IMG/VR virus record: IMGVR_UViG_3300016667_000429
Coordinates: 1-61,672 of that record
Length of the DNA: 61,672 bases
Reading direction: 5' to 3' (one strand)
Source: a virus
Below the pieces are notes generated by a model, which was not told the DNA's origin, ran no database searches, and worked only from the letters and a program-made list of their open reading frames with translations. Positions 21,501 through 44,306 of this stretch are shown here, in pieces. The stretch's first letter is position 1; each line of letters starts with the position of its first letter. The position numbers were made by a program, and so were the translations under genes.

Positions 21501-22125
21501 CCTGATCCCCGGCACGGGTATGTTGAAAAAATCCAACACCGCGATGGAATCTGTGCGGTCGATTGTGGAGATTGCCGGCCCGACCGCCTCCATCGGCACG
21601 CAGGTGGGCGACGCGGCAGAGGCGGCGTCGGAGGAAAACTACGATCAGGCTCGCCGCAACCTTGCACCCAAGGCCGTCAAGGATTTGATGATGGGCTTGG
21701 ACATGCTGGACAAGGGCTATGCGGTGGACGCTGCGGGCAACAAGAAGGTGAACACGACGCCTGCCGACGCCTACATCAAGATGCTGGGCTTCAATCCAAC
21801 TGTCGTGGCACAGAAGAACCGTAGCCAGATGGTCGAGCGACAGGACATCAATCTTCAAAAGGAAACCGAGTCGTCCATTGTCAAACAGATGGCACGCGCG
21901 CTTTCGGAAGGCGACAAAGAGCTAGAGAAGAAGGCCGACCGGCGCTTGGAGAATTGGAACAAGTCCAACCCGAATACGCCGATCGTCATCAAACCGCGTC
22001 AAATCAAAGATGCGATGAAGAACATGGCTTCTGACAGCGATGCTCGGCTCATCAAACGCGCCCCGCGTGAGATGCGGGGGCGCGTTGCGGATAATTTATC
22101 GGACGACACAACAAGTGACGATTAA
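9526..22125 (+). CDS. giant polyvalent virion protein (4199 aa): lytic transglycosylase + N6-adenine-type methyltransferase + SNF2/strawberry-notch-like helicase + HExxH zincin-like region + PLxRFG region + C-terminal TM helices
   Basis: 12.6-kb uninterrupted frame. SLT motif AQESG...GPGQV (Glu codon 9781). MTase motifs EPTAGNG (13861) and NPPF (14038..14049). Helicase motifs GDQTGIGKGR (15127..), DESH (15574..), STGLSLH and QMLGRVHRTGQ (about 16.7-16.8 kb). HEILH at 18826..18840. PLMRFG at 20053..20070. Hydrophobic helices at about 20.6-21.3 kb. Confidence 0.9.
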   Translation: MNKENQIGLDTLNSNPSGLTEVSWSAQFQPQEPLPLKESTNPAAAGQPPQKQGAGISNDKLDAIAQREGLTPAQARIWKEGILAQESGKGSNSKTSVDGARGPGQVIPSTFAGYAKPGERVDNEEHNLAVSARIVKDLATKFNDDPARVAVGYFSGEGNVSKNGGQAWKNDAADGNGKRVSSYASDVLRRLESAPQANGSPAPAPDTSKIPRWNDIVAKPEYAKLSPEDQQAAKELYFDHYIAPVAGEDAESLRAEFMAKKASAPAPKQEPGLLDKAGQVVSDIYSQAKKELFPKSVMEGAPAQPTPTDASFAPAKPEVRRAVEAQWDAASPAQRAKMEADPSWVGDIARARAGAFGRQDKALPNSPTLQSVDPRVEARRAELIRKGEDPRFADTAAQEGARKAAVPGQEIAALDGVAQKSDFDFDTQAAFSGDNKLLNNPITRAGAKGALGIAKFGAGYGQFMSDLYGLDGSAGVMKDAGDWVRGKEAAIGERGTMLERNLEGALSSITQQLPLMLVGVKTASEAIPLVGIGMQTFGQEYSDGRAKGQSMGEAATRAGLFAAFEIVGEKFSIGANLKALKAIFDKTPTDQLAGLMWNVIKKEVPSEMLTTTGQFATDKLGGGVGLNPNAGTQEFIAQMGDTIVQTIMQSVIMGGAPGAVKGTRDFLTDKGDESANMVEIRANSAQEQALAKWEQFRQSTRPQNAGRPEPTMGAETPVTVTGDGRIEPTMADDPIGAIALTGQQPATATPTPEPQANAISPIVADADQIVSELATQAGIPQDTVLPTPTASTPTVAAPSPTTGAVEPQTDNDVSDLAEVRLDQLRAKRDGGSTMVMTEDGPQQVDQPPMALTPQEAQELATLESGDINAIRTLYGANNPVAQATLEPGLVAAQENPNESVQAQAPAQVDGTAPGIAPQNAVGNDGQSGGTAAVQEPAADAASAQVGAEGGQRQQGLSAEDALEREAIQSEADFKPTDVPDIDVPFDPIPTNGTQTPQAQQAEAQGSEAPAAKRQVSEKTGNVRTSYDVWDDEGNKGTINIIRKPDGEVFRIFQEWTNKDGKTARFEMSTGYGKGAADDYIVKAIAEPSDLSLTKPETVTAPPKTEKEAKQRKQQPTQAAPDLDAMFDEVLAEETGGKEQEQSPLLRARNDLIDLRSQVEAQGNVVDDRLLERVRRQERLVKELQGETAPKTERQAKEQRTAGEAAASAAKNTVEGFNNAIDGLGKLFGGGPGTLGSGPVFNEETYRKAKPLFQAAVANFQQAGADIREVMRAVVQALLAKFGKQAVENMKPYVVRFISEYQQGDKTEAVSTATDLYTPEGKMKVAQTLADEFIGGASFKTIIEARKRISDLIGKPIEAATELAKQADETIEVAVVLAGREIVKAGRAQGRSPQVIYERLVDLYNRQPNLAVRSSTSVRDQAYSTPVPLAYLASELAGITYDSKVLEPTAGNGMLLVGAATENSTANELNPKRASMLQAMGFDALTENAATEDLADPNSQDAVIANPPFGATKNAKGETIVYEVRPDYGTREVDHAIAFNALTTMKDDGRAALIVGGTQSTEEEARREDYRGKGKRTFYFNLYNEYNVVDHFTVDGSLYSKQGASYPVDVIVIEGRGKSARNLPAADLPQIIGSYDELKEKLNGTRSVESQGVRSTDRAAGGQDQAGAGNGTAVDRGTGRPSDATGDRGGRGNDAASVPRSRTAGDRQPAGSGTVSGDGQSQSQDTSGSRSDRQAAVPGEGRGTQPGSTASDRGNRPVEVGGERVVAGERVGSGLTDRRGEETETENQVAYEPRSNAASVGTLVPRAMRDSIQNSIAKIEDQFGNIDEFVAEKLEMDVETLRENFSAEQVDALALAIKNAEEGRGFIIGDQTGIGKGRVVAAMIRYALVNGKVPIFVTEKPNLYSDMIRDLDDIGMTAELALDTNKPRIFITNASESIPYTLLRESNGEITETNLTLRAPASGKALEQQFQMHMNANDLGHYKVIFTTYSQLQTVKGKQTTRMNFVKQFGAGNYMIFDESHNAGGAGETQARSKEQRDAAKAGESLVTGRAAFVRQLVNAAFGTFFSSATYAKRPDVMDLYSSTNMKLAVDRISQLGEAIKNGGVPMQQVVANMLTIDGQYIRRERTFAGVSYDTVETKVDKETAENMASAMRAVLAFSRAKEAVIKNIQKEMDKEGTLIKQMGGESSTIQGANFGAIMHNLIDQMLLSLKVQDSINHALERLKAGEKVVMTVSNTMGSFLKDYAEEMGLNMGDPVALSFKDLYDRYLEKQRIVTIKDGAGRKTQRRLTDAELGATLVAQFEAVRKQIAESGFGSAPISPIDFLHNELRKAGYKTDEITGRTVTLNYQSGTPILTSRSANIRQRVNAVRGFNNGDVDVIILNQAGSTGLSLHAASKFKDKRKRHMIIVQAEKNIDTHMQMLGRVHRTGQVIPPAYSQMMADIPAEMRPAAVLMKKMASLNANTTASRKSSVTAEGVVDFVNDYGGQVAQEFLRDNPDVVEAIGGSKVVPILDDPSEASEDDIRKLTGYIPILPIKQQEQIYKDLIDRYNELIERENTLGTNKLEAKAVDLDAQILSTVQITEDKGDPSIFAQPASMEQVDVKRNVKPYTSAEVNEIVNERLGDKTAGAVANDFIKMVTELTHQFEREKIDAEKKKEGVDPVKIESQRAIINMTLGHVRAVLQNYQIGNSISIKDKNGFIIYGVITDIQNKGRTQNPAAGSAWKMTIALANGDAKSLTINFGQIGNRYELSRETRVNWYNAETQSAEMMNITDIFDKGSTVRREKRWMVTGNILAGFAKYPGQIIQYTKKDGTTGQGVLMNRQFDFAKEQKNQPVTLKSGAQVMQFIKAVGDGAMVGTPDGNFRMSLRNGKFVFVVPKSKRQGGKYHQDKGLTQHTGEFYSRGEQMVANTYDAADATAALDYIINEIEESIQALNNADKAREMFAPKPKEGGVELNDIPSNLAENGLFTNLPEPERVNAMARLKSLERRAQAGKITDAEFRLGVAQVVADMQRKANARSEPKDLVRGPDWVRERLLRARRTNELPANVVDFALWLLDKNPALATDLAISLQKGGDNSPSGSYKSLARLVTLFKNNVNSGTAVHEILHHAERMMSGEVHKGVIREWQRAWDAAYRKGDAKTKEALVKLLQGGLGNKAAFADAIQAFKDGTLNYEEHYQLTNPSEYWAVNATRILSQRYGANTWQEKARQFLREMIEYMKGALGFRSDTQIMKGLRQVIKGDGSMVSSKMLVEQVANNDIKADPNKLPPTEFMDIRSSVQAALFKNPKTLRTFGWYDRSISTQLNKALKDADFAKVFGYVNAIQNEVSLTSLRAAELAPGYLPRITDVKAAAKTMVMGRKSGSAQAKASQAIFSGTLAGDTVMEGKVWTEEELRNNFGLDDTGVALYFQARAAIDASLDEVAAAEAYAMAQGFIPKAMRRAIIDSPQRAEALISASLEQQIKKLQRAIKAANDMGNEAQAKSLEDVINGYFSTAKQIEKIFTTSRNLKAAGYAPLMRFGKYTVTAQAIDAATGNLIRDEEGNSITMFFGKYETEGEAQNVLQSMQAQYAGRDDVKISAGVSSEAGYELYSGISPETLALFAEALGADKVMKKYIQEALSERSALKRRLERKGVEGYTQDMPRVLANFITSNARHASKQYYMRDLNNAIKYIPKEKGDVKDEAIALKEFVLNAKDPGSALSAITFGWFLGGSVSSALVNMTQPIMMTGPYLSQFGVRDATTAMAKAMPIALGRKQITDAELRNALKRASQEGIVDAQEIFHLYSQGAQNTAAWLASTLAKVPGAGAKVKAGSESVRARASAFGVLWGSMFAAVEGFNRRLTFVAAWEVAKATGVKNPYAFAVRAVNETQGIFNKANRPNWARGGLGRMVFTFKQYSIMYVELVKRMATKGGPEGKRAALIMLATLLLLSGEEGLPFSQDLADIIDTIGQFLGYDTNMLRSKRELAHKILGEQLGDFALYGLSSFLPVDFQGRLGLGNLIPGTGMLKKSNTAMESVRSIVEIAGPTASIGTQVGDAAEAASEENYDQARRNLAPKAVKDLMMGLDMLDKGYAVDAAGNKKVNTTPADAYIKMLGFNPTVVAQKNRSQMVERQDINLQKETESSIVKQMARALSEGDKELEKKADRRLENWNKSNPNTPIVIKPRQIKDAMKNMASDSDARLIKRAPREMRGRVADNLSDDTTSDD
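14450..14848 (+). CDS. nested +1-frame ORF (132 aa, acidic) inside the giant gene linker; candidate overprinted gene
   Basis: AAGGAG (14437..14442) lies 7 nt before the ATG, and an in-frame TGA lies immediately upstream. Hand-counted GC3 is about 77% in this frame versus about 43% in the giant-gene frame over the same bases. The translated sequence is globular-looking, whereas the main frame here is a G/R/D/S low-complexity stretch. Confidence 0.45.
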   Translation: MALVAWSPKGYAAPIELLAVKIKPGQVTERQWIEALADRVTQLAIEAGEETTLQACRDLELPETDNPQEAGQFLVMGNLNLRTHLDLAVIDKPPFPAKVGERNPEAQQAIEETDLSRWVESALSLVSASDLD

Positions 22126-35360: not shown

Positions 35361-35561
35361 TCACAAATCAGGATCAATCCAAAACCCGTCACCAAAGATC
35401 AGTGGGATCGGGTCGTAGTCAGGTCCCTCTGCTTTGGCAATCTGCTTTTGCAGCGCGGTGCATTTCTCGTGCAGCTCCATCACCTTGGAGTAAACCTCTT
35501 GCCCTTCCTTCAGCAGCCGGTTGTGCTCTTTCTTCAAATCGTTGATTTCTTTTGGCGTCAT
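35361..35561 (-). CDS. hypothetical coiled-coil protein
   Basis: 66-aa ORF with an ATGA-coupled start. Confidence 0.55.
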   Translation of the reverse strand: MTPKEINDLKKEHNRLLKEGQEVYSKVMELHEKCTALQKQIAKAEGPDYDPIPLIFGDGFWIDPDL

Positions 35562-35686
35562 TGCGGTTTCTCCTCTTCGTCGAACGTCATAGTTTCTGGG
35601 TGCGGCACAGGGTCATGCACGATCACGCCTTCGTCGTCTGCTTCAATCAGTCTGCCGCAGATCACGCAGTAGTAGCCGTCGCTCAT
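35558..35686 (-). CDS. 42-aa micro-ORF (CxxC)
   Basis: ATGA overlaps at both ends. MSDGYYCVICGRLIEADDEGVIVHDPVPHPETMTFDEEEKPQ. Confidence 0.5.
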   Translation of the reverse strand: MSDGYYCVICGRLIEADDEGVIVHDPVPHPETMTFDEEEKPQ

Positions 35687-35922
35687 TTCGATTTCTCCGG
35701 TGGATGAAGGAAGTTCAGCACTGCCGAATAGACGCGAAACCGACCATAGTTGTCGCCAACCTCATTCGCCCACCCTGCATAGCGCATCTCGACTTCGCAC
35801 TGCTGTAATAGCTCGTATGCTTCACTGAGTTCCTTTGCGCCCCAGTCAGGGTTGAATTCGGTTTCGCGTTCGCACCCAGACTGTTTACAAAACCCGCCGC
35901 AGCTTGAGCATTGTCTATCCAT
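35683..35922 (-). CDS. hypothetical Cys-rich protein
   Basis: The start at 35922 (MDRQCSSCGGFCKQSGCE...) has GAGGAG upstream. 8-nt overlap with the upstream gene. Confidence 0.5.
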   Translation of the reverse strand: MDRQCSSCGGFCKQSGCERETEFNPDWGAKELSEAYELLQQCEVEMRYAGWANEVGDNYGRFRVYSAVLNFLHPPEKSK

Positions 35923-36163
35923 GGTTTTTCTCCTCAAGCAACGCGCCACACAGGTCGCGCGCTGCGTCGTTGTTACCAGCAAAGACAACCACGTCTAATT
36001 CTTCCGGTTCAGGCTGCGCTAGTGCTGCGCGGAGTGCTTCATATAAAACAGCTATTGCTTTGTGTTGAAGTTGTAATTGTTCTTTACCGCCAAAATCTTC
36101 AATTATCGGCAGACCATGCTCCAACGCATTCAGCGCCATCTGCATCAGTTCTCGATCATTCAT
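35915..36163 (-). CDS. hypothetical protein
   Basis: ATGA-coupled start at 36163. Contains an ALAQPEPEE motif related to the LRARLAQPEP family. Confidence 0.55.
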   Translation of the reverse strand: MNDRELMQMALNALEHGLPIIEDFGGKEQLQLQHKAIAVLYEALRAALAQPEPEELDVVVFAGNNDAARDLCGALLEEKNHG

Positions 36164-36753
36164 GTGTTCTTCTCCTTTAGTTTGGCTTCGACTGCCGCGA
36201 CAACATTGCCAGTGCCCCAACACTCCGAGATTTCATCTCCCGTCAGACCTTGCCATTCGCGCTGTGGTGGGGCGGTGTAGAGATTGGACGGAATAACCTC
36301 CAAAGCAAGCAACGCAGTTTCAATTTCTTCCATATTTGGAATGAACCCATAATGCGCGTCAGGGTCGATGCTGTGATAAACGCGAAGCAAAAACGCCGGG
36401 TCAATAATCCAATCTTCCCCATGCTTTGGCGCATGACGCGGGAAACGTACCGAACATGTCACCGGCTCCGGTTTGCAGAACGATTCTGCCGAATCTGCCG
36501 AATGTGTTGCCGAATGTGGGCTGGTATAGAGCGGGACAGTGTAGGTCTTTGTCTGGTACGCGCTGAAGTCTCGGCTGAAGTCAGTAATTAAGCCTCGCAC
36601 AGTCCACGCCACCGGCTCCTGCTCGGGCTGCGCGAGTCGGGCGCGGAGTAGTTCGCTTGCTTCTCGGCGCGGCGTACCGACACTATTTCTTTCAATAACA
36701 TCCAGCACCTGCTGCATTTCGCTGCGCGTGAGTGTGATTGTGTTGTTAGTCAT
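36160..36753 (-). CDS. hypothetical protein, LRARLAQPEQ / YTAPPQREWQ family
   Basis: 197-aa ORF, paralogue of 34456..34845 with an inserted middle region. Confidence 0.6.
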   Translation of the reverse strand: MTNNTITLTRSEMQQVLDVIERNSVGTPRREASELLRARLAQPEQEPVAWTVRGLITDFSRDFSAYQTKTYTVPLYTSPHSATHSADSAESFCKPEPVTCSVRFPRHAPKHGEDWIIDPAFLLRVYHSIDPDAHYGFIPNMEEIETALLALEVIPSNLYTAPPQREWQGLTGDEISECWGTGNVVAAVEAKLKEKNT

Positions 36754-36760
36754 GCTCGCC

Positions 36761-36949
36761 TCATTTAGTGAACCCGCTTTGTACGCAGGTATACTTAACT
36801 GACTTAGTTGTTAGCTGAACCATCTTAGCCGCTGCTTTACCTGCGGCTTCGCAATGCTGCTCAGTAGCAAACACGGTGGTTGTCATGCTATTGCTGTCTT
36901 TTTCAGACAAAACACCGGCGTGTATAAACAGAATCAATACCCAAGTCAT
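36761..36949 (-). CDS. small protein with N-terminal hydrophobic (signal-like) segment
   Basis: MTWVLILFIHAGVLS.... ATGA-coupled start. Confidence 0.5.
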   Translation of the reverse strand: MTWVLILFIHAGVLSEKDSNSMTTTVFATEQHCEAAGKAAAKMVQLTTKSVKYTCVQSGFTK

Positions 36950-37212
36950 TGTTGTTCTCCTGTAGCTTTGGCGATGGCGGTGCGTATTTCAGCCTCTAGC
37001 TCGTCCGCAAATCCGCGCTCTTGGTTGATATTGCCAATGCAATTTTCCAGCGCTTCCAACAAAACAGGAGCAGCGGCTATCAGATGGGCGTCCTGAATTA
37101 CACGTGAAATGCGCTTGTCATCGTGAAACAAAGTCTCATTGTTTGCTCCTACCACTGTGACATGAGTCGCGGTTTCTCGGATCGTCCACGGCCCCGGCGT
37201 GTGTTTGTTCAT
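36946..37212 (-). CDS. hypothetical protein, HTPGPW...AHLIAAAPVL family with AIAKATGEQQ tail
   Basis: Paralogue of 33993..34265. Its 3' end is a 37-bp block identical to 35003..35039. Confidence 0.6.
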   Translation of the reverse strand: MNKHTPGPWTIRETATHVTVVGANNETLFHDDKRISRVIQDAHLIAAAPVLLEALENCIGNINQERGFADELEAEIRTAIAKATGEQQ

Positions 37213-37445
37213 TATTGTTCTCCTGTAGCTTTGGCGATGGCTTCCTGTGCAATCGTGTTGCCTATGCTGTTACCGTATCTATCGCCATTCCCAAGTCGAG
37301 CCAGCTTATCCAGAGCCGCCAGCAACTCAGCATTCACCTCATGCAAGCGGCGTAGTTCGGCGGCGGCAGCGTCTGTATCCGCGTATCCGTAAAGTTCCTC
37401 AAGCGCATCAGCCAGCCGCAAGGCTTCGGGTTGTTTGTCAGTCAT
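37212..37445 (-). CDS. hypothetical protein, MTDKQPEALRLA family
   Basis: Paralogue of 35003..35350. TAATG junction with the next gene. Confidence 0.6.
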   Translation of the reverse strand: MTDKQPEALRLADALEELYGYADTDAAAAELRRLHEVNAELLAALDKLARLGNGDRYGNSIGNTIAQEAIAKATGEQ

Positions 37446-37717
37446 TGTTCTCTCCTTGCGCGGATAGCTATTGCAGCTACTTTGTAATAGTTGGACAGCC
37501 TGTCTTTAGCTGCCATCTCATCCAATACTTTCGCACACGCCTCATTCTCATCCTTGCGACCTGCTTCGTATACTGCGGCGCATATTTGCCCTACGATTCC
37601 TTCAATGTTTACCCACGATCCATTGGAATGCGTGACAACTAAACCGCCGTGAATCCTATGAGGCTCTAACCCCGCGTTCCGCGCCCATGCGATGACTTGC
37701 TCTTGTGTTGGTTTCAT
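37442..37717 (-). CDS. hypothetical protein
   Basis: 91-aa ORF, ATGA-coupled. Confidence 0.55.
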   Translation of the reverse strand: MKPTQEQVIAWARNAGLEPHRIHGGLVVTHSNGSWVNIEGIVGQICAAVYEAGRKDENEACAKVLDEMAAKDRLSNYYKVAAIAIRARREQ

Positions 37718-37923
37718 TCCGTTCCCCTCCGTGACCGTACATCGGCCACCATCTCGTAATTGCCCATCATCAGCGGCTTCAGCGGCTTCAATTGAATCGT
37801 CACCACCGCGTCATACGCCCGCGCCATCTTGATGAGATAGTCGGCGTGGGCTTGCAGTGACAGCAGATCCATCTCGCGCCGCGATTCTTCAACCGTCTTG
37901 AACTTCACAATCTCGGCGCTCAT
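37714..37923 (-). CDS. hypothetical protein
   Basis: 69-aa ORF, ATGA-coupled. Confidence 0.55.
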   Translation of the reverse strand: MSAEIVKFKTVEESRREMDLLSLQAHADYLIKMARAYDAVVTIQLKPLKPLMMGNYEMVADVRSRRGTE

Positions 37924-38207
37924 TTCTTTTGCTCCGTGTCGATCAATTGAAACGATTCCATCGGGTAGGTGTACGCATCGCCGTCGTCATAGCGAACGTG
38001 GATCTCGTTCGCTAGTACGCCCCAACACCCGAACAACGTGGTGCTGTTCGGTGCGCTGGCGTACATCCGGCGCAGCGCCGGCCTGTCAGGGCAGGCTTCG
38101 GCGGTCAGCACGATCTTGCCCCCGGCCTTGTTCTTCCATTCCAGCCACTTCTCGGCGTGCGCGGTGCTGGCCGTGACCAGCAGCGCCATCAAAAGCAATC
38201 GCTTCAT
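37920..38207 (-). CDS. secreted/periplasmic protein (cleavable signal peptide)
   Basis: MKRLLLMALLVTASTAHA/EK signal-peptide pattern. Two Cys in the mature part. Confidence 0.6.
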   Translation of the reverse strand: MKRLLLMALLVTASTAHAEKWLEWKNKAGGKIVLTAEACPDRPALRRMYASAPNSTTLFGCWGVLANEIHVRYDDGDAYTYPMESFQLIDTEQKK

Positions 38208-38422
38208 AGCTCCCCCTCTTTTTCCTGTTCGTAATGTGTCTTGCTCAGTGACAAAACGTGAGCGAAGTTGATCCCCTGTAAGTCACAAAAGTGACGCAAG
38301 TCGGATAGAACGTCGATCACGTTTTCCTCGCTGGCAGCATCAAATGGCAGCTTCAGCAATTGCTCGGTATAAATCTGTACCGTGCATTGCGCCCGGTATG
38401 CGCGTTCGCGGTTTGTCATCAT
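38204..38422 (-). CDS. hypothetical protein
   Basis: 72-aa ORF, ATGA-coupled. Confidence 0.55.
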   Translation of the reverse strand: MMTNRERAYRAQCTVQIYTEQLLKLPFDAASEENVIDVLSDLRHFCDLQGINFAHVLSLSKTHYEQEKEGEL

Positions 38423-38709
38423 TCTTCGCCCCCCAGGAATCGCAAACCCTTCGGCGTGACCGTGAGCCGGTTAGCCCGCTTGTCGCGCTCGGACGGCTTC
38501 ACATCCACCAGCTTCGCCTCGATCAGCTCGTGAATGGCGTGATGCAGCGTGGCAGGACTGCCAACGCCTTCAGCCAGCGCCAGCCGCTTCAATTCGTTCT
38601 GACTGCACCCCGGCTTCTCGAACCGGCGGCACAGGTCGAGCAGGATTTCCGCGTGAATGGAAATACCAGCGGCTTGCCGCCGCTGGAAATGCTTGAATGG
38701 TGTGGTCAT
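38419..38709 (-). CDS. MarR-like winged-helix regulator
   Basis: CSQNELKRLALAEGVGSPATLHHAIHELIEAKLVDVKPSERDKRANRLTVTPKG matches the wHTH plus wing pattern. Confidence 0.55.
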   Translation of the reverse strand: MTTPFKHFQRRQAAGISIHAEILLDLCRRFEKPGCSQNELKRLALAEGVGSPATLHHAIHELIEAKLVDVKPSERDKRANRLTVTPKGLRFLGGEE

Positions 38710-39245
38710 TTCTTCGCCCCCTTCTTCTTGTCCGGCCAGCCAGCTTTCACAAGATCAGTAATCAGCCCCGTGACCGCCGGAACCGTCCGATCAAGCTTTA
38801 CCGCCGGGTCAGGCAGGTACTTCGCCAGCTCCGGCATAGCGTCACGCGCGGCCTTGACCGTGGTGAACGCCTTGATCGTTGACCATAGCTTTCGCTCCAG
38901 CTCCCGGCGCTCGTCTTTTTGCTTCCTGTCAGCCGCGTTCAGCTCGGTCAGCTTCTTGATGATCTTGGCATCCGTGATTCGGTAGTAGTTGCTATGCCCT
39001 TCGTTCGGCACGACAAAGCAGTTCGTGGTGTTGTAGTGGCTGTGGTCGTCAGCCCACCGAACCGTGTGCTGGTGAAAGTAATGGCGCGTGTCCGGGTTCT
39101 TGTAGAGGCGCACCACCGCAGCCGGGGCAATGTCGAGCAAATACTCTTGGGCAACCTTCTGTATCTGTTCGGTGTAGTCGGTCTTGGGTGTGTCAGCGAG
39201 TACGGCGCGAACGAATGCGTCGCGTAGGTTTTCGGTCAGTCTCAT
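38706..39245 (-). CDS. hypothetical protein
   Basis: 179-aa ORF, ATGA-coupled. Confidence 0.6.
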   Translation of the reverse strand: MRLTENLRDAFVRAVLADTPKTDYTEQIQKVAQEYLLDIAPAAVVRLYKNPDTRHYFHQHTVRWADDHSHYNTTNCFVVPNEGHSNYYRITDAKIIKKLTELNAADRKQKDERRELERKLWSTIKAFTTVKAARDAMPELAKYLPDPAVKLDRTVPAVTGLITDLVKAGWPDKKKGAKK

Positions 39246-39649
39246 GCTTGGCTCCTTTCAATGGTGATAGTCCCCGGTCGGGTAGATGTCAGCGTGATGC
39301 TGTCGCCAGCCGCGCCCAACCGTTCCAGCAGCTTCGTGCTGTTGATGTCAACAATCGGACGCTCCGGCTTGCCCGCAATGCGCCGCGCCCCGCCCTCGGT
39401 TTTGCTGATGACGTAGCGCCCGCTTTGCATATCGATCAGGTCGTACCTGTCGCCGTGAGCAAAGCCAGCGTCGAGCAGGAACTTGCCCTCGATCCAGAGG
39501 CGCAGGTTGCCCCGGTTCAGGCATACCTTGCGGGTCGCGGTAACGGTCGTGAGCGCAGCTACGCGCTCGCGGTGTCGAGTGAATACCCCGTCGTCAACCC
39601 CTTTCGGGGTTGAGCGCAGGGTTCGGTCAGCCTGTGCCATGTCGATCAT
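39242..39649 (-). CDS. hypothetical protein with AbrB/SymE-like swapped-hairpin segments
   Basis: ATGA-coupled start at 39649. LRLWIEGKFLLDAGFAHGDRYDLI...GRYVI resembles the SymE/AbrB-type pattern (weak recall). Confidence 0.5.
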   Translation of the reverse strand: MIDMAQADRTLRSTPKGVDDGVFTRHRERVAALTTVTATRKVCLNRGNLRLWIEGKFLLDAGFAHGDRYDLIDMQSGRYVISKTEGGARRIAGKPERPIVDINSTKLLERLGAAGDSITLTSTRPGTITIERSQA

Positions 39650-39978
39650 GCGGTCGCTCCTTTGTTCTGGTAGAAGGCTCGCGCCTCTTGAATCAGGAAT
39701 TGCAGGTCGTTCACTGCCGCCTGATGCTGGACTTCCACGTTCTTCTCGGTGCAACGGGACTTCGATAGCGTCACGCTCTTGTGATAGTCCTGATAGATCG
39801 CAAAGGTGAACCCAAAATCGGTTTTGACTGCAACGGATGCACTCGTCACCAGCCCTCGGTCGCTCTTGCGCGTGGTCAGTTGCAAAATGCGCTCGCCCTT
39901 CTTGATCTCGTCGCCCTCCAGCGGCACAACGGTTTCGGCTTTCCATCCATCACGGCCTTTGTAGATTTGCGTTCTCAT
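39646..39978 (-). CDS. hypothetical protein
   Basis: 110-aa ORF. AAGGAGCGAAGC precedes the ATG. First cistron downstream of hammerhead copy A. Confidence 0.6.
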   Translation of the reverse strand: MRTQIYKGRDGWKAETVVPLEGDEIKKGERILQLTTRKSDRGLVTSASVAVKTDFGFTFAIYQDYHKSVTLSKSRCTEKNVEVQHQAAVNDLQFLIQEARAFYQNKGATA

Positions 39979-40002
39979 GCTTCGCTCCTTCGTTCAGTAG
40001 TT

Positions 40003-40056
40003 GGACTCATCAGTACCGGCTTGACCGGCAGACCGGGGCGTACCCCGGTTTCGTCC
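40003..40056 (-). ncRNA. hammerhead ribozyme motif, type II topology (copy A)
   Basis: Minus-strand RNA: GGAC-GAA-ACCGGGG(UACG)CCCCGGU-C/UGCCGGU(CAA)GCCGGUA-CUGAUGA-GUCC. All invariant core positions and three helices are present. Lies in an intercistronic spacer. Confidence 0.75.
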
Positions 40057-40229
40057 TAGTCGGTGTTCTGGTCGCCTTCCTCGGCCAGTTCACCGTCGTT
40101 GCTGTCCAGCGCCACAAGGTTGTTATCCAGCCCAAAGTGGTACTTCACTTCCTCGTGCAGCTCGTCCCGCGCCGCTTCCAGCGTTTCGCCACGCACCCAA
40201 ACCACGCATTCAAATCGGTATAAATTCAT
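40056..40229 (-). CDS. 57-aa acidic micro-ORF
   Basis: GAGGAA SD. MNLYRFECVVWVRGETLEAARDELHEEV.... Its UAG stop abuts ribozyme stem II. Confidence 0.5.
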   Translation of the reverse strand: MNLYRFECVVWVRGETLEAARDELHEEVKYHFGLDNNLVALDSNDGELAEEGDQNTD

Positions 40230-40248
40230 GTTGAGAATTCCTCAATCT

Positions 40249-40515
40249 CTACGACAAAAAAACACCGCCGAAGTCGCGGTACGTGCGAATCGGTGTGCGC
40301 TCCTGATAGACCTCCTCGAACTTGACCGGCTCGCCCCGGTTCTTCTTCGCCTCCATGAACAGTGCCGCGTCGCAATCTTCTTCAAGGTAGGCCATGTTTT
40401 TGTGCTGATAGCTGTACCGGCTAATGCGATTGGTCAGGCCAAGACGCACCACCTCTGCCAGCGGAACCTCCAGCCAGCCGTGGCCGGGGTCAGAGATGAA
40501 TCGGTAGGTATTCAT
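40249..40515 (-). CDS. hypothetical protein (YRFISDPGHGWLEV family)
   Basis: ATGA-coupled start at 40515. Confidence 0.6.
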   Translation of the reverse strand: MNTYRFISDPGHGWLEVPLAEVVRLGLTNRISRYSYQHKNMAYLEEDCDAALFMEAKKNRGEPVKFEEVYQERTPIRTYRDFGGVFLS

Positions 40516-41144
40516 GCTGTCACCTCCTGTTCGGTCTTTTCGATCACCGGCTGGCGTTCCGCACCATGCACCCATACCGGCACGTTGAATTGCTCGTAGC
40601 CGCGCATCGCCATCACCACGCCGATAAAGTCAGGCACTTCGATGTTGACAAGGCACGTTCCCTGTCCACGCTGGCGAACCCACACCTTGCCGCCGTCCAG
40701 TGCCGCCGACACTTCCGCGAACCGCACCAGCAGGTACGGGTCAATCGCGCTCGGCGCGTCCGGCTCGATCAGCAGATCGCCGTTCTTGGGGGTCACGCGG
40801 CTCGTGTCGGGGAAAACACCGTCCACGGCCTTCATGGTCAGGTTGATACCCACGGCCGCAGCCTTGACCACGCCCTCGGACACATAGAACTCCACCAGCT
40901 CGTCAGCTTGCCGCTTCGTCCCCAACAGCGGCTTCAGCGAATCGCGCTCCAGAATCACCTCCGCTTGCGGCTTCGGCTCGGTCGAGATACGCAGCATTCC
41001 GAGCAGGTGTCCGTCAGTCGCCTCGATGATCGTGCCGAACTGCCCTTGCCGAACGTGCAGCCCGTTCAGGTAATACCGAACATCCTTCGTCGCCGCCAGC
41101 ACCAGCATGGCCTTCAGTTGCCCGCGCATAATCGAAAATTCCAT
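40512..41144 (-). CDS. two-domain DNA polymerase III beta (sliding clamp)-like protein
   Basis: KDVRYYLNGL...EATDGHLLG...VDGVFPD..RV.P...GVVMAMRG parallels DnaN domain II-III landmarks (RYYLNG, ATDGHRL, DG.FPDY..V.P, VVMPMRL; recalled from E. coli DnaN). Confidence 0.6.
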   Translation of the reverse strand: MEFSIMRGQLKAMLVLAATKDVRYYLNGLHVRQGQFGTIIEATDGHLLGMLRISTEPKPQAEVILERDSLKPLLGTKRQADELVEFYVSEGVVKAAAVGINLTMKAVDGVFPDTSRVTPKNGDLLIEPDAPSAIDPYLLVRFAEVSAALDGGKVWVRQRGQGTCLVNIEVPDFIGVVMAMRGYEQFNVPVWVHGAERQPVIEKTEQEVTA

Positions 41145-41155
41145 CGTTCGCTCCT

Positions 41156-41389
41156 TCAGTCGTCAAAGTCAGGGGAAACAGTAAAACCCATGTCACGCAG
41201 CCCCCGCGCTACGTCACCGGGCAGACAAGCCACGCCGTCATAGTCCACCAGCGATCCGTCCTCGAACCACAGACCGCCGCCGCACTCGTCGCCGTAGTCC
41301 TCATGCTCGAAGTACCCGTACTGGGCAGTCGAATCGACCATCACCTCGAACTTGCCCACCCTCGTTACCTTGTCAAATGCGTATTTCAT
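41156..41389 (-). CDS. hypothetical acidic protein
   Basis: The start at 41389 has AAGGGG upstream. Confidence 0.5.
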   Translation of the reverse strand: MKYAFDKVTRVGKFEVMVDSTAQYGYFEHEDYGDECGGGLWFEDGSLVDYDGVACLPGDVARGLRDMGFTVSPDFDD

Positions 41390-41399
41390 AGCCAGCCCC

Positions 41400-41735
41400 T
41401 TAAACGTCATACCGATGATGAACAATTACCAGACAAGCAATTGTGCTGCCCGGATATTGGACGGCAGACACCGCATGGCAGTAGTAGCTGCCAGCCGCAC
41501 CACCCTCGCGGTAAACCTGCGGCAGTAGCCATTGCTCGGCCTGTTCCGGCGCCAGCTCGGCATTGCGGCAGGTCAGCAGCACCACGCCGTCCGTACCGCG
41601 ACCGTTCGGAAGGTCGATGTTGCCGACCGTTTCCATGTGAATCTCAACCTCGCGGATTGGGCAGTCGTCGGACTCGCAGACCGGGTTATCCGGCTCCATG
41701 TCGCGCCCGCAGAAGGCGCAGGTGCAGTTAGTCAT
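41400..41735 (-). CDS. hypothetical protein with N-terminal Cys cluster
   Basis: ATGA-coupled start at 41735. MTNCTCAFCGRDMEPDNPVCESDDCP. Confidence 0.55.
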   Translation of the reverse strand: MTNCTCAFCGRDMEPDNPVCESDDCPIREVEIHMETVGNIDLPNGRGTDGVVLLTCRNAELAPEQAEQWLLPQVYREGGAAGSYYCHAVSAVQYPGSTIACLVIVHHRYDV

Positions 41736-41860
41736 ACAGCCCTCCATTCCTTTGTCACAGGGTTGAATCCAGCCCGCAGCAGGGCATCAAATGCCCGCTG
41801 GCTCAAAGGCTGGAACCGCTTGCTGGCCGCGTAAGCGACGTATTCGGCGTAAGTTGGCAT
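41732..41860 (-). CDS. 42-aa micro-ORF
   Basis: GGGTGAGG precedes the ATG. MPTYAEYVAYAASKRFQPLSQRAFDALLRAGFNPVTKEWRAV. Confidence 0.45.
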   Translation of the reverse strand: MPTYAEYVAYAASKRFQPLSQRAFDALLRAGFNPVTKEWRAV

Positions 41861-41862
41861 CC

Positions 41863-41955
41863 TCACCCCCACACCAAAGCCACCACAAACCCGACCGCAG
41901 CAACCGCCGCGATCGTCCAGTCGATGTCCCACTCGAATCCGTCCCGGTCGTTCAT
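41863..41955 (-). CDS. 30-aa membrane micro-ORF
   Basis: ATGA-coupled start. MNDRDGFEWDIDWTIAAVAAVGFVVALVWG. Confidence 0.45.
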   Translation of the reverse strand: MNDRDGFEWDIDWTIAAVAAVGFVVALVWG

Positions 41956-42197
41956 GCCGCCACCTCGTCAGCCTTCGGCACGACACAAGACCGGCCTGAC
42001 ATGATCGCCACCGTCCACCACACCGGCATCTCGAAACCAGCCGCCACAAGGCCAGCCATCGCGCCGACAAAGAACTCCACCTCCAGCTCGCGGTACTTCT
42101 TCGTGCCAGCCTTCAGGCCAGCATTGGCAGCTCGCGCCACCCATTGCCGTTCCACGTTGTCCTGCATTTCCTTCGTTATGTGTCCCATGTGCGCCAT
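41952..42197 (-). CDS. 81-aa membrane protein
   Basis: The start at 42197 is preceded by AAGGGAGCGAACG. Hydrophobic FFVGAMAGLVAAGFEMPVWWTVAIM. First cistron downstream of hammerhead copy B. Confidence 0.55.
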   Translation of the reverse strand: MAHMGHITKEMQDNVERQWVARAANAGLKAGTKKYRELEVEFFVGAMAGLVAAGFEMPVWWTVAIMSGRSCVVPKADEVAA

Positions 42198-42236
42198 CGT
42201 TCGCTCCCTTGTTCGATGGCGGGCGCTACCCGCCGT

Positions 42237-42288
42237 TGCCTCATCAGTGCCGGTGCGACCGGCAGACCCGCCGCAGCGGGTTTCGGCA
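42237..42288 (-). ncRNA. hammerhead ribozyme motif, type II topology (copy B)
   Basis: Minus-strand RNA: UGCC-GAA-ACCCGC(UGCG)GCGGGU-C/UGCCGGU(CGC)ACCGGCA-CUGAUGA-GGCA. Same core as copy A, with compensatory changes in all three stems. Confidence 0.75.
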
Positions 42289-42672
42289 TCAGGCACGTTG
42301 GATCGAGACAGCCGTTCCGAACTGGCTTACCGCTCCGTACGTCATGCCGCCCTCCAGCGCCGCCACATCCGGCTGGCATGGCAGCATCCCGCCAACCATC
42401 TCGCCGTAATACGCAATCGCGTCCTCAGCATCCTCAAAAGACCGAACCAGCAGACCGTCGGTGTCATGCGTCTTGACCACAAAGCCCGCCGCCGCCACAG
42501 GCACACCCAGATAGGCCGCAGCATTGGCGATCGCTTGCTCAATCGTCTTTGCGTCGCCAATCGCCTCCAGCACATCGCCGTCCGAGTAGCACTCCACCAG
42601 CGTGTCCCAGCCGTTTTCGTAGTTACGCATCGCGTGTTGTCGTACCGCCTGAATCATTGTCTGTTCGTCCAT
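42289..42672 (-). CDS. hypothetical protein (first gene of the 9-kb early-left operon)
   Basis: 127-aa ORF with GAGGAG SD. N-terminal NYENGWDTLVECYSD motif. Confidence 0.6.
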   Translation of the reverse strand: MDEQTMIQAVRQHAMRNYENGWDTLVECYSDGDVLEAIGDAKTIEQAIANAAAYLGVPVAAAGFVVKTHDTDGLLVRSFEDAEDAIAYYGEMVGGMLPCQPDVAALEGGMTYGAVSQFGTAVSIQRA

Positions 42673-42688
42673 CGTTCGCTCCTCAAGT

Positions 42689-42727
42689 CGGTTTTAAATA
42701 TTGAGCGCCGCTCAACGGTTTTAAATA
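42689..42727. promoter_or_regulatory. direct repeat - palindrome - direct repeat element (CGGTTTTAAATA / TTGAGCGCCGCTCAA / CGGTTTTAAATA)
   Basis: 12-bp repeats at 42689..42700 and 42716..42727 flank a 15-bp palindrome. Lies 17 bp upstream of the first early-left ATG. Confidence 0.45.
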
Positions 42728-42906
42728 TATACGCGCGCGAAGTTATTTAAAAGGGGTTTCGTCAAATATTTTTGCCCGAACCGTTGTACGGACACCACAC
42801 GTTGCGTTCTTGGCAAAATTCTCCGGTTTTTCCCGTTTTCGGAGAATCGGGAGAGGATTTAAGAAGCATTGAGAAATCAGGTGTTTTAAGGAATATATAT
42901 AATAAA

Positions 42907-42925
42907 ATATATATATATATATATA
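42907..42925. repeat. (AT)n tract, 19 nt, preceded by a shorter ATATATAT tract (42893..42900)
   Basis: Read directly. Lies at the centre of the AT-rich island. Confidence 0.9.
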
Positions 42926-43060
42926 CTAATTCTCTAATTCTCCCTCTCTCTCATATATACAGACTATTTATTTCAAAATAGAAATCTATCTATCTATTTA
43001 TAAGAGAATTGGAGAATTGGAGAATTTAGCGAAATCCGTATAACGATTCGGCTTCAAATG

Positions 43061-43085
43061 CCGCACAAACACTGGCTTTGTGCGG
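43061..43085. other. 9-bp-stem hairpin CCGCACAAA-CACTGGC-TTTGTGCGG
   Basis: Perfect inverted repeat. No clear U-tract on either strand. Confidence 0.4.
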
Positions 43086-43188
43086 TTGCAACATAGTTCC
43101 GAGAATTTTGAGAGAATCGAGAATCGGCTGTCAGGTTCGCGTCAGGTTCGTGCGCGTTGTTGAGTTGGCATCAATCGTGGGCAGATTG

Positions 43189-43217
43189 TTGCGCGACCCT
43201 TATCTACCCCCTATGAT
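43189..43217 (+). promoter_or_regulatory. putative sigma70-type promoter TTGCGC-N17-TATGAT for the rightward block
   Basis: Hexamers at 43189..43194 and 43212..43217 with a 17-nt spacer, 54 nt upstream of the first rightward CDS. Confidence 0.35.
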
Positions 43218-43218
43218 C

Positions 43219-43253
43219 GTTCTGTCCCCAATTTGCGGGATGTTCTGTCCCCA
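43219..43253. promoter_or_regulatory. two direct 12-bp repeats GTTCTGTCCCCA (43219..43230, 43242..43253)
   Basis: 23-bp spacing, directly downstream of the putative -10. Operator or activator-site candidate. Confidence 0.4.
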
Positions 43254-43270
43254 TTTTTTGAGCGAGGAAC

Positions 43271-43684
43271 GTGGCTACTTCGACAACGAAAAAAACAGGC
43301 CGAACAGAGGAAGCAGAACAGGCTCGCGTTATCAAATGGTCACACCGCAAGCTGGTGCGCGACCTCATGCCCGACCTCCGCTGGCTCCATCACTCGCCCA
43401 ACGGCGGCAAGCGCGATGCCTTCACCGGCGCTCAGATGAAGGCGCTTGGCGTCAAGCCCGGTTTCCCCGACCTCCTCCTCCCCGTCCGGTCAGGCAACCA
43501 CCCCGGCCTCGTCATCGAGATGAAGTCGGCTACCGGCAAGGTCACGCCCGAACAAGCCGATTGGCTCGATCACCTCACCAGCCAGCAATGGGCAACCGCC
43601 GTCGCCCGATCAGCCGAAGAAGCCCGCACCGTCCTCTGCGACTACCTCGGATTCGACCCGATCAAAGCCCCGCCGCTGGACTAA
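43271..43684 (+). CDS. VRR-NUC domain nuclease
   Basis: GTG start with a GAGG-type SD. HHSPNGG...G.KPGFPDLLL...GLVIEMKS...Q..W pattern. Confidence 0.7.
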   Translation: MATSTTKKTGRTEEAEQARVIKWSHRKLVRDLMPDLRWLHHSPNGGKRDAFTGAQMKALGVKPGFPDLLLPVRSGNHPGLVIEMKSATGKVTPEQADWLDHLTSQQWATAVARSAEEARTVLCDYLGFDPIKAPPLD

Positions 43685-43971
43685 TGCCGCGCTCGCCAGC
43701 CAAAACCAGCACCAACACGCACCGCCTGCGTGTCCTCACCGTCATTCAATCCACCGAAGGCTGGATCACAGGCCACGATGTCGCCCAACTGTCCGGGTTG
43801 ACCCACAAGCAGGCCATCGACGCGCTCAACTACCTCAACAACACGGCCAAGATCGCCCGCACAGGCCGCAAATTCACCGCCAAATGGGGCAGATTGGTCA
43901 CGCCAGACCCCGCTGACGACCCCATCACCGCACTAGAACTCGCCTTTAGGAAAGGATTCCTCGCCCGATGA
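43684..43971 (+). CDS. putative winged-helix protein
   Basis: TAATG junction. RVLTVIQSTEGWITGHDVAQLSGLTHKQAIDALNYLNN. Confidence 0.5.
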   Translation: MPRSPAKTSTNTHRLRVLTVIQSTEGWITGHDVAQLSGLTHKQAIDALNYLNNTAKIARTGRKFTAKWGRLVTPDPADDPITALELAFRKGFLAR

Positions 43972-44306
43972 CCACCCACGAAGCAGCCGCAACCGGCATC
44001 CTCATCCCCATTGACGAGTCAAACTCGCCCATCCATCACCCGCTGTACCCGGTTTTGCTGGCCGCCATCGAGCAGGCCATGTTCGGCAAGGGCGAACGTC
44101 ACGGCGGCGCTGTCACGCCCTTCCTCGACCAGCCATGGACGCACTACGCAGCCATGCATGGACGCGGATTCCTCACCGGCCAAGCAGCCAAAAAGCTCGA
44201 AGAAGCAGCATCCACCCGCAACGGCGCAGCATTCGAGGCCGAAGTGCTGGGCGCGATCGTCTACTGCGGCATGGCAATCCTGCACGAGCGCGCCAGCTCG
44301 GACTGA
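43968..44306 (+). CDS. small protein resembling the DUF5664 / dATP-dGTP pyrophosphohydrolase N-terminal domain
   Basis: ATGA-coupled. GKGERHGG...F.DQPW...GRGFLTGQAAKKLEEA pattern (recalled). Confidence 0.45.
   Translation: MTTHEAAATGILIPIDESNSPIHHPLYPVLLAAIEQAMFGKGERHGGAVTPFLDQPWTHYAAMHGRGFLTGQAAKKLEEAASTRNGAAFEAEVLGAIVYCGMAILHERASSD

Follow-up and report, generated by a model that had tools for sequence, protein, structure and literature searches.

Introduction

Type II hammerhead ribozymes were described in 2011, together with the findings that they are abundant in prophages, that they cluster around small genes whose function is unknown and that such clusters cleave in vitro and in vivo (Perreault et al., 2011; PMC3088659). 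In the prophage clusters of Agrobacterium tumefaciens, Azorhizobium caulinodans and Clostridium scindens, multiple ribozymes lie on one polycistronic transcript and separate single genes or small groups of them. These clusters cleave during in vitro transcription, and that of A. tumefaciens also cleaves in E. coli (PMC3088659). The processing of long phage transcripts has been proposed as their role (PMC3088659, PMC6765202), and the reviews of 2017 and 2019 that cover phage and bacterial hammerheads still list the biological role as open (PMC6155905, PMC6765202).

A typical member of the type II family (Rfam RF02276, Hammerhead_II) has a loop 1 of about 10 nt, which pairs with the 3' tail GCAGCC in a pseudoknot, and a stem II of 2-3 bp (PMC3088659). 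In the main type II class this loop 1-tail pseudoknot is critical for fast cleavage at 0.5 mM Mg2+ (PMC3088659). Hammerheads of types III and I such as those of sTRSV, CChMVd and Schistosoma are known for a contact between loop 1 and loop 2. This contact follows the motif UNmYN/RNnA, in which the U and the A form a reverse Hoogsteen pair, as seen in the Schistosoma and sTRSV structures (Dufour 2009; PMC2632901). No newer functional work on phage hammerheads was found in a literature search. Synthetic insulators of the RiboJ type place a self-cleaving hammerhead-type ribozyme upstream of a ribosome binding site, which yields a hairpin-capped 5' end and uncouples expression from the upstream context; they are engineered and derived from sTRSV (type III), not from natural type II ribozymes. 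Here we describe two type II hammerheads, copy A and copy B, in an operon of an uncultured phage. Like the RiboJ-type insulators, both lie just upstream of a ribosome binding site, where they would define a hairpin-capped 5' end.

Results

The phage and its minus-strand operon

The window, i.e. the whole stretch of DNA that was analysed (61,672 nt, IMG/VR record IMGVR_UViG_3300016667_000429), is phage DNA and encodes a portal, a large terminase, an internal virion protein, tail fibres, a primase and a Cas4-type exonuclease. The portal is 37-46% identical (tblastn) to those of Achromobacter phage CF418P1, 933W-like and other podophages. Megablast of positions 38000-44000 against GenBank phages gave no match, and no close DNA relative exists among GenBank phages; the phage is not a described one. 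A 4199-aa ORF among the virion genes (9526-22125, plus strand) combines an N-terminal SLT lytic transglycosylase with a Strawberry-notch-type helicase (AAA_34, Helicase_C_4, ResIII) and may be a DarB-like giant ejected protein.

Both hammerheads are carried by the minus-strand operon listed in Table 1, whose only sizeable spacers are the 91 nt that harbor copy B and the 77 nt that harbor copy A. At all other junctions the spacers are 19 nt or shorter, or start and stop codons overlap, in the ATGA form. Both motifs begin at the stop codon of the gene before them, and 24-39 nt separate their end from the next start codon. The same gene model was obtained in independent ENA, JGI and Logan calls of the same or a 95%-related phage. 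An apparent gap of 217 nt (41735-41952) was considered as a third RNA element and rejected; two small ORFs fill it, and it gave no ribozyme match.

When ten flanking ORFs were compared with PHROGs and Pfam, only beta-clamp-like and Nmad5 domains were detected, neither of them adjacent to the ribozymes. The former is found in a 210-aa ORF between the hammerheads (40512-41144, minus strand), which has matches to the beta clamp of DNA polymerase III (central domain, PF02767) and to a PHROG annotated as RusA-like resolvase or processivity factor. The latter is found in a 179-aa, nucleotide-modification associated gene (38706-39245, minus strand), which the window shares with ENA contig L123 and which is missing from the 95%-related Logan contig L121 (2376-2429), corresponding to a gene-sized indel within the operon.

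An AT-rich region (42700-43078) separates the minus-strand operon from a divergent plus-strand operon and is probably the operator/promoter region between two early operons. Within it, AATTCTCC is repeated in direct as well as inverted orientation; the region also has a long run of (TA)n and an imperfect palindrome (42928-43026), the latter of which gave spurious Rfam miRNA matches. One promoter-like site was found (42751-42724, minus strand), a weak consensus match only, and promoter-like sites were not enriched upstream of the operon. An earlier reading of the DNA letters (the sequence-only reading) had labeled the operon as early. The layout beside the AT-rich divergent region makes this presumptive label plausible; the transcription unit and its promoter are likewise presumed here.

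Table 1. Features of the hammerhead locus and its operon (positions in the window; strand in brackets).
Feature	Position	Strand	Remarks
Hammerhead copy A, whole type II motif	40003..40056	(-)	stem II 5' strand through stem II 3' strand
Copy A, unpaired A directly 5' of stem II	40057	(-)	middle base of UAG stop
Copy A, stem II 5' strand GGAC (11.4-11.1)	40053..40056	(-)	G40056 doubles as final base of UAG stop
Copy A, core G12-A13-A14	40050..40052	(-)	GAAA begins at 40052
Copy A, stem III hairpin, A15.1 to U16.1	40032..40049	(-)	7 bp, UACG loop
Copy A, C17	40031	(-)	GUC triplet; predicted scission 40031/40030
Copy A, stem I hairpin UGCCGG-UCAAG-CCGGUA	40014..40030	(-)	U40024 = L1.U1
Copy A, core C3-U4-G5-A6-U7-G8-A9 (CUGAUGA)	40007..40013	(-)	
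Copy A, stem II 3' strand GUCC (10.1-10.4)	40003..40006	(-)	followed by unpaired A40002
Hammerhead copy B, same subclass	42237..42288	(-)	C17 = 42265; stem II UGCC/GGCA; predicted cut end 42264
Upstream cistron, 57 aa	40056..40229	(-)	stop overlaps stem II; no family match; gene call in independent assemblies
Downstream cistron, 110 aa	39646..39978	(-)	no family match; SD AAGGAG at 39985-39990
Minus-strand operon, about 25 small ORFs, tightly packed	35361..42672	(-)	carries both hammerheads
AT-rich divergent intergenic region, 380 bp	42700..43078		presumed promoter/operator upstream of minus-strand operon

Copy A has the core and the helices of a type II hammerhead

Read from 40056 to 40003, the minus-strand RNA of copy A consists of the stem II 5' strand (GGAC), GAA, which together with the first base of stem III forms GAAA, the stem III hairpin (ACCGGGG, UACG, CCCCGGU), C17, the stem I hairpin (UGCCGGU, CAA, GCCGGUA), CUGAUGA and the stem II 3' strand (GUCC). 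All positions that define a hammerhead core (C3 U4 G5 A6 N7 G8 A9, G12 A13 A14, A15.1:U16.1, H17) are present, as are all three helices. The core is bordered by the Watson-Crick pairs G40006:C40053 (10.1:11.1), U40030:A40014 (1.1:2.1) and A40049:U40032 (15.1:16.1). In stem III, 40049-40043 pairs with 40038-40032, while stem I has six Watson-Crick or GU pairs plus a closing U:G around the loop CAA. [quoted passage not shown]

According to the sequence-only reading, a spacer between two cistrons of a phage operon holds a type II hammerhead that is complete, and this claim is supported: on re-reading base for base, the core, the pairs, C17 and the stems were all found where they had been placed. 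It was also right that a UAG (40058..40056) abuts stem II, this being the stop codon of the 57-aa ORF, and that an AUG at 39978 follows 24 nt past the motif with a Shine-Dalgarno sequence (SD; 39990..39985) in front of it.

For the 54-mer of copy A alone, both the minimum free energy (MFE) structure and the centroid are the exact three-way hammerhead junction (-25.5 kcal/mol). In a context of 101 nt the MFE structure keeps the junction, and the centroid retains the stem III and stem I hairpins only.

Copy B is located 2.2 kb upstream of copy A and begins directly behind the first gene of the operon, whose TGA stop is at 42289-42291. The two copies are near-identical in core and stem I, and the differences in stem III are compensatory. 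UGCC occurs in tandem (UGCC UGA UGCC) at the 5' edge of copy B (42285-42296, minus strand). In a context of 111 nt the MFE structure takes the upstream UGCC, giving an extended alternative stem II register that pairs part of CUGAUGA; in this folding model the register could be a competing fold. Between copy B and the next ribosome binding site lies a 7-bp GC hairpin (GGCGGGU AGC GCCCGCC, 42218-42234, minus strand), which is not followed by a U-run. A reading as terminators was rejected, because a U-run is absent after either hammerhead and after this hairpin.

Rfam scores and expectation by chance

The bare sequence pattern GAAA..UC..CUGAUGA is expected about 1.2 times per window. A descriptor that demands the core pattern together with a stem III of at least 4 bp, a stem I of at least 5 bp, a stem II of at least 3 bp and H17 gave two matches in the window, compared to none in 1000 dinucleotide-preserving shuffles.

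At Rfam gathering thresholds, copy B was the sole match in the whole window (Hammerhead_II, 40.2 bits). At permissive thresholds RF02276 also recovered copy A, with 30.1 bits (E 0.014 in 20 kb), which falls short of the 37 bits set as the gathering score. As the sequence-only reading had itself named a score below the gathering threshold as evidence against a hammerhead, this result formally speaks against copy A. However, the low score is explained by the architecture of the subclass described below, which departs from the pseudoknot-type consensus of the model, and not by a defect of the motif. Members with the same architecture from nine unrelated loci scored between 24.7 and 38.3 bits and thus straddle the threshold.

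A pseudoknot-free form with a 4-bp stem II

When IMG/VR was scanned by pattern for type II hammerheads that share this stem I (UGCCGG..CCGGNA), the stem I sequence of copy A was seen to occur in at least 119 hammerhead loci. Most of the matches listed have a loop 1 of 10 nt and, by our counting, a stem II of 0-3 bp, and in most of them the tail GCAGCC or GGCAGNNC pairs with loop 1, which is the pseudoknot form of Perreault et al. Among the matches listed, 15 have a loop 1 of 5-6 nt and lack the pseudoknot, and stem II is exactly 4 bp in each (15/15). Copies A and B both have this architecture of a short loop and a 4-bp stem II. In the subclass, as defined from the IMG/VR loci, the CCGG arms enclose a loop 1 of 5-6 nt that begins with U, stem II has exactly 4 bp, an A stands 5' of stem II and the 3' flank is other than U. 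Copy A shows all of these features (UCAAG, GGAC/GUCC, A40057, U40024 and A40002). Inspection of copy A showed no pseudoknot of 4 bp or more that would join loop 1 to the tail 3' of stem II, as loop 1 (CAA, within UCAAG) and the tail AACUACUGAACG can form at most three contiguous pairs. Copy B likewise has no loop 1-tail pseudoknot, and a pseudoknot reading was rejected on inspection of loop 1 and tail.

A covariance model (R1) was built only from 15 unrelated viral-contig sequences of IMG/VR, with the window excluded. In the window, searched with filters off, R1 scored copy A with 63.3 bits (E 4.5e-17) and copy B with 66.2 bits, compared to only 11.4 bits for the next match, which is not a hammerhead. 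On 100 IMG/VR loci, training members reached 61-75 bits and main-class hammerheads at most 52 bits; five more members with different stem I sequences were recovered at 52.6-59.3 bits.

Among 23 aligned subclass sequences, standard pairs account for 99.7% of pair cells and 8 of the 14 pairs show compensatory changes on both sides, values which are somewhat favoured by the fitting of the alignment to the model. None of 500 shuffles reached them, and sliding the partners left 27-40% paired. In stem II, three of the four pairs have compensatory changes, and the types GGAC/GUCC, GGUC/GACC, GGCC/GGCC, ACGC/GCGU, GAUC/GAUC, AGUC/GACU and UGCC/GGCA can be read directly. Stem III of copy A shows compensatory changes relative to the subclass as well as to copy B. 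Position 17 is C in 22 of the 23 sequences and A in the remaining one.

A proposed contact between loop 1 and the flanks of stem II

In the 23 subclass sequences the nucleotide 5' of stem II is invariably A and the first nucleotide of loop 1 invariably U (23/23 each). As the nucleotide 3' of stem II, 15 sequences have A, four have G and four have C, and none has U, and the penultimate base of loop 1 is a pyrimidine in 16 of the 23. When these flanks are mapped onto closed-loop hammerheads, they coincide with the 3' A and the 5' R of loop 2 and with the U and the Y of loop 1; the classical contact is therefore proposed for the subclass. A40057 is the topological counterpart of the 3' A of loop 2. 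Of the UNmYN/RNnA features, copy A has the U, the R (A40002) and the A (A40057) and lacks the penultimate Y, as this base is A in its loop 1 (UCAAG). Copy B has the Y, while the relative of copy A (UUGAG) is also without it. Judged by this conservation pattern, it is probably the classical loop 1-loop 2 contact that stabilises the active fold, and not the usual type II pseudoknot: U40024 would pair with A40057, with loop 2 'opened' into the two flanks of stem II.

Compared to type III and type I hammerheads (PMC2632901), the likeness comprises a helix I of 6 bp, whose loop begins with U and frequently carries a pyrimidine as its penultimate base, and a helix II of 4 bp with a purine on one side and the invariant A on the other. 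In contrast to these, loop 2 is not closed in the window, where its end nucleotides flank the open stem II and continue into the mRNA, and loop 1 is not as long (5-6 nt if the U and its partner are included), with A instead of Y as penultimate base in copy A. The contact itself is deduced for the window from conservation only.

Placement in phage operons and relatives of the locus

Placement was surveyed for 114 distinct hammerheads, which came from IMG/VR (loci L001-L119) and from the window. For 97 of the 114, an ORF with 45 codons or more lies upstream and ends within 40 nt of CGAAAC, at a distance of 0-6 nt in most cases. The upstream stop codon thus overlaps or abuts the 5' strand of stem II in most of the phage type II hammerheads surveyed, and in most of them the next SD and start codon follow 15-45 nt past CUGAUGA. 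Two to four hammerheads per contig, spaced by one or a few genes, are common in the IMG/VR loci. The layout of the window matches this placement and therefore is the family norm. In two of the viral contigs, sub-threshold Hammerhead_3 (type III) matches of 31-35 bits (L080, 3857-3913, minus strand; L009, 4072-4128, plus strand) lie on the same strand as the type II copies and a few hundred nt from them, which suggests mixed-type hammerhead clusters.

A protein database search with the 110-aa ORF returned one homologue cluster only, with 95% identity, from two Logan contigs (L121 and L122), in which the same intact hammerhead precedes the homologue. Compared to copy A, this relative has two substitutions in loop 1 (CAA to UGA), and its tail, which leads from stem II to the SD, differs by further substitutions and by an indel of 14 nt; the changes near copy A are confined to these two places. 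Such a pattern would be expected from selection on the ribozyme, with the relatives too close for a strong test. Exact-match look-ups found copy B 100% identical in near-identical metagenomic contigs, which is uninformative on conservation. Homologues of the flanking ORFs were not found outside near-identical metagenomic contigs. A search for syntenic relatives in IMG/VR and GTDB genomes by means of the 110-aa and 210-aa proteins gave nothing useful among the matches listed; a GTDB match for a flanking protein was spurious (24 residues, Clostridia MAG).

Discussion

The window copies share with the RF02276 family (PMC3088659) the identical catalytic core, the open stem II, the closed stems I and III and a stem I that equals the family consensus (UGCCGG...CCGGYA). 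As in that family, several copies lie in one phage operon beside small genes whose function is unknown, directly behind a stop codon and shortly ahead of the next ribosome binding site. They differ from the typical member in that loop 1 has 3-5 nt, stem II is exactly 4 bp long and the pseudoknot is lacking. Compared to the prophage clusters of Perreault et al., the phage of the window belongs to another lineage and has other flanking genes, and its ribozymes are known here from sequence alone. A ribozyme between cistrons of a phage operon had been called a distinctive regulatory device in the sequence-only reading. This is not the case, as hammerheads that flank genes in prophage operons were described in 2011 (PMC3088659). 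Copy A is an ordinary new example of a known arrangement and would not surprise a ribozyme specialist.

Judged from its sequence, copy A is likely a functional type II hammerhead that acts as an intercistronic self-cleaving processing site of a polycistronic phage mRNA. It would be transcribed within a long minus-strand polycistronic message, and once the 3' strand of stem II is made, the three-way junction would fold and cut after C17, between 40031 and 40030. Copy B would cut likewise after the first gene, leaving the transcript in three segments, namely gene 1 alone, a nine-gene block (42197-40056) and the remaining downstream genes. Hammerhead scission 3' of C17 generates a 2',3'-cyclic phosphate and a 5'-OH. 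The upstream product would thus have the stem III hairpin and a 2',3'-cyclic phosphate at its 3' end, and the downstream product would open with the stem I hairpin, whose first nucleotide bears the 5'-OH, ahead of the SD of the next gene and of the AUG 24 nt past the motif; the 4-bp stem II would be too weak to keep the cleaved halves together. In bacterial mRNA decay, 5'-terminal hairpins and 5'-OH ends slow the entry of RNase E, and 3' hairpins block exonucleases. For this reason the segments may be stabilised separately, and they would gain independent stabilities and translation rates. Cleavage in vivo and its effect on mRNA stability are our inference from the locus, and the end chemistry is taken from hammerheads in general.

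A more far-reaching reading, which joins the structural and the positional observations, is tentative and rather unlikely. It would make the ribozymes of the window a distinct, under-annotated type II variant, in which a U:A reverse Hoogsteen contact replaces the pseudoknot and which serves as a translation-sensitive processing switch, not as a constitutive cutter. Loop 2 would be split open and its conserved 3' A supplied by, or adjoining, the stop codon of the upstream gene, such that translation termination and formation of the tertiary contact would be mutually exclusive. Taken by itself, the notion of a conditional ribozyme that couples cutting to the translation status is improbable. A terminating ribosome would cover stem II, G12-A14 and part of stem III, and the RNA would be cut only if translation of the upstream cistron is poor, or once the ribosome has been released. 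The stop codons fit this idea, as they end 2-3 nt before CGAAAC in both window copies and at a distance of 0-6 nt in the majority of the 114 phage hammerheads surveyed. However, abutting signals are expected in compact phage genomes without any coupling, and the A 5' of stem II is conserved in the subclass even outside stop codons, so that the adjacency is not needed for it.

It is clearly improbable that copy A is a structurally intact but slow or inactive relic, in which the hammerhead core was retained by recent descent and not by selection, and the hairpins act mainly as mRNA stabilisers or RNase targets. Neither copy has the pseudoknot, minimal hammerheads are slow at physiological Mg2+ (PMC6155905, PMC3088659), and 4 of the 18 consensus candidates of Perreault et al. 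were inactive (PMC3088659), all of which would be in line with such a relic. Against it, two diverged copies in one operon have kept every core base while changing stem III in a compensatory manner, and the architecture recurs in unrelated contigs with covarying helices and with the invariant flanking A and U. Both observations point to purifying selection on the whole motif.

That the pair of hammerheads excises the 2.2-kb segment between them, whose 5'-OH and 2',3'-cyclic phosphate ends would then be joined into a circular or spliced RNA by the reverse reaction of the ribozyme or by RtcB, is highly improbable. The two same-strand ribozymes do flank a defined block, and the possibility was raised by Perreault et al., but these authors sought such products and found none (PMC3088659). 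In addition, nothing in the sequence joins the ends, as the stem II strands of the copies are not cross-complementary (GGAC/GUCC versus UGCC/GGCA). Finally, a chance resemblance to the hammerhead consensus in GC-rich DNA, to which the sub-threshold Rfam score of copy A and the bare pattern expected about once per window might point, has a negligible probability, being refuted by the shuffle test (two descriptor matches against none in 1000) and the R1 scores (E about 5e-17 for copy A), with both sites exactly within non-coding spacers.

Only a few points are modestly new: the pseudoknot-free architecture with a 4-bp stem II and an invariant A and U, its being missed in large part by the Rfam threshold, and the near-universal overlap with the upstream stop codon. 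Sequences of the subclass type were not found in those parts of the 2011 supplements of Perreault et al. that were searched, and earlier alignments may already contain the form. As for the type II topology, both helices that flank the cut are closed hairpins and both cleavage products are therefore hairpin-ended, which is a suggested rationale for its use in mRNAs. The locus offers a clean layout of two ribozymes in an otherwise spacer-free operon, beside the divergent control region of a temperate-type podophage. Each hammerhead that is as well placed as these adds context on the biological role, without settling that question, and as the Rfam gathering score misses much of the recurrent pseudoknot-free form, annotation pipelines under-count phage hammerheads.
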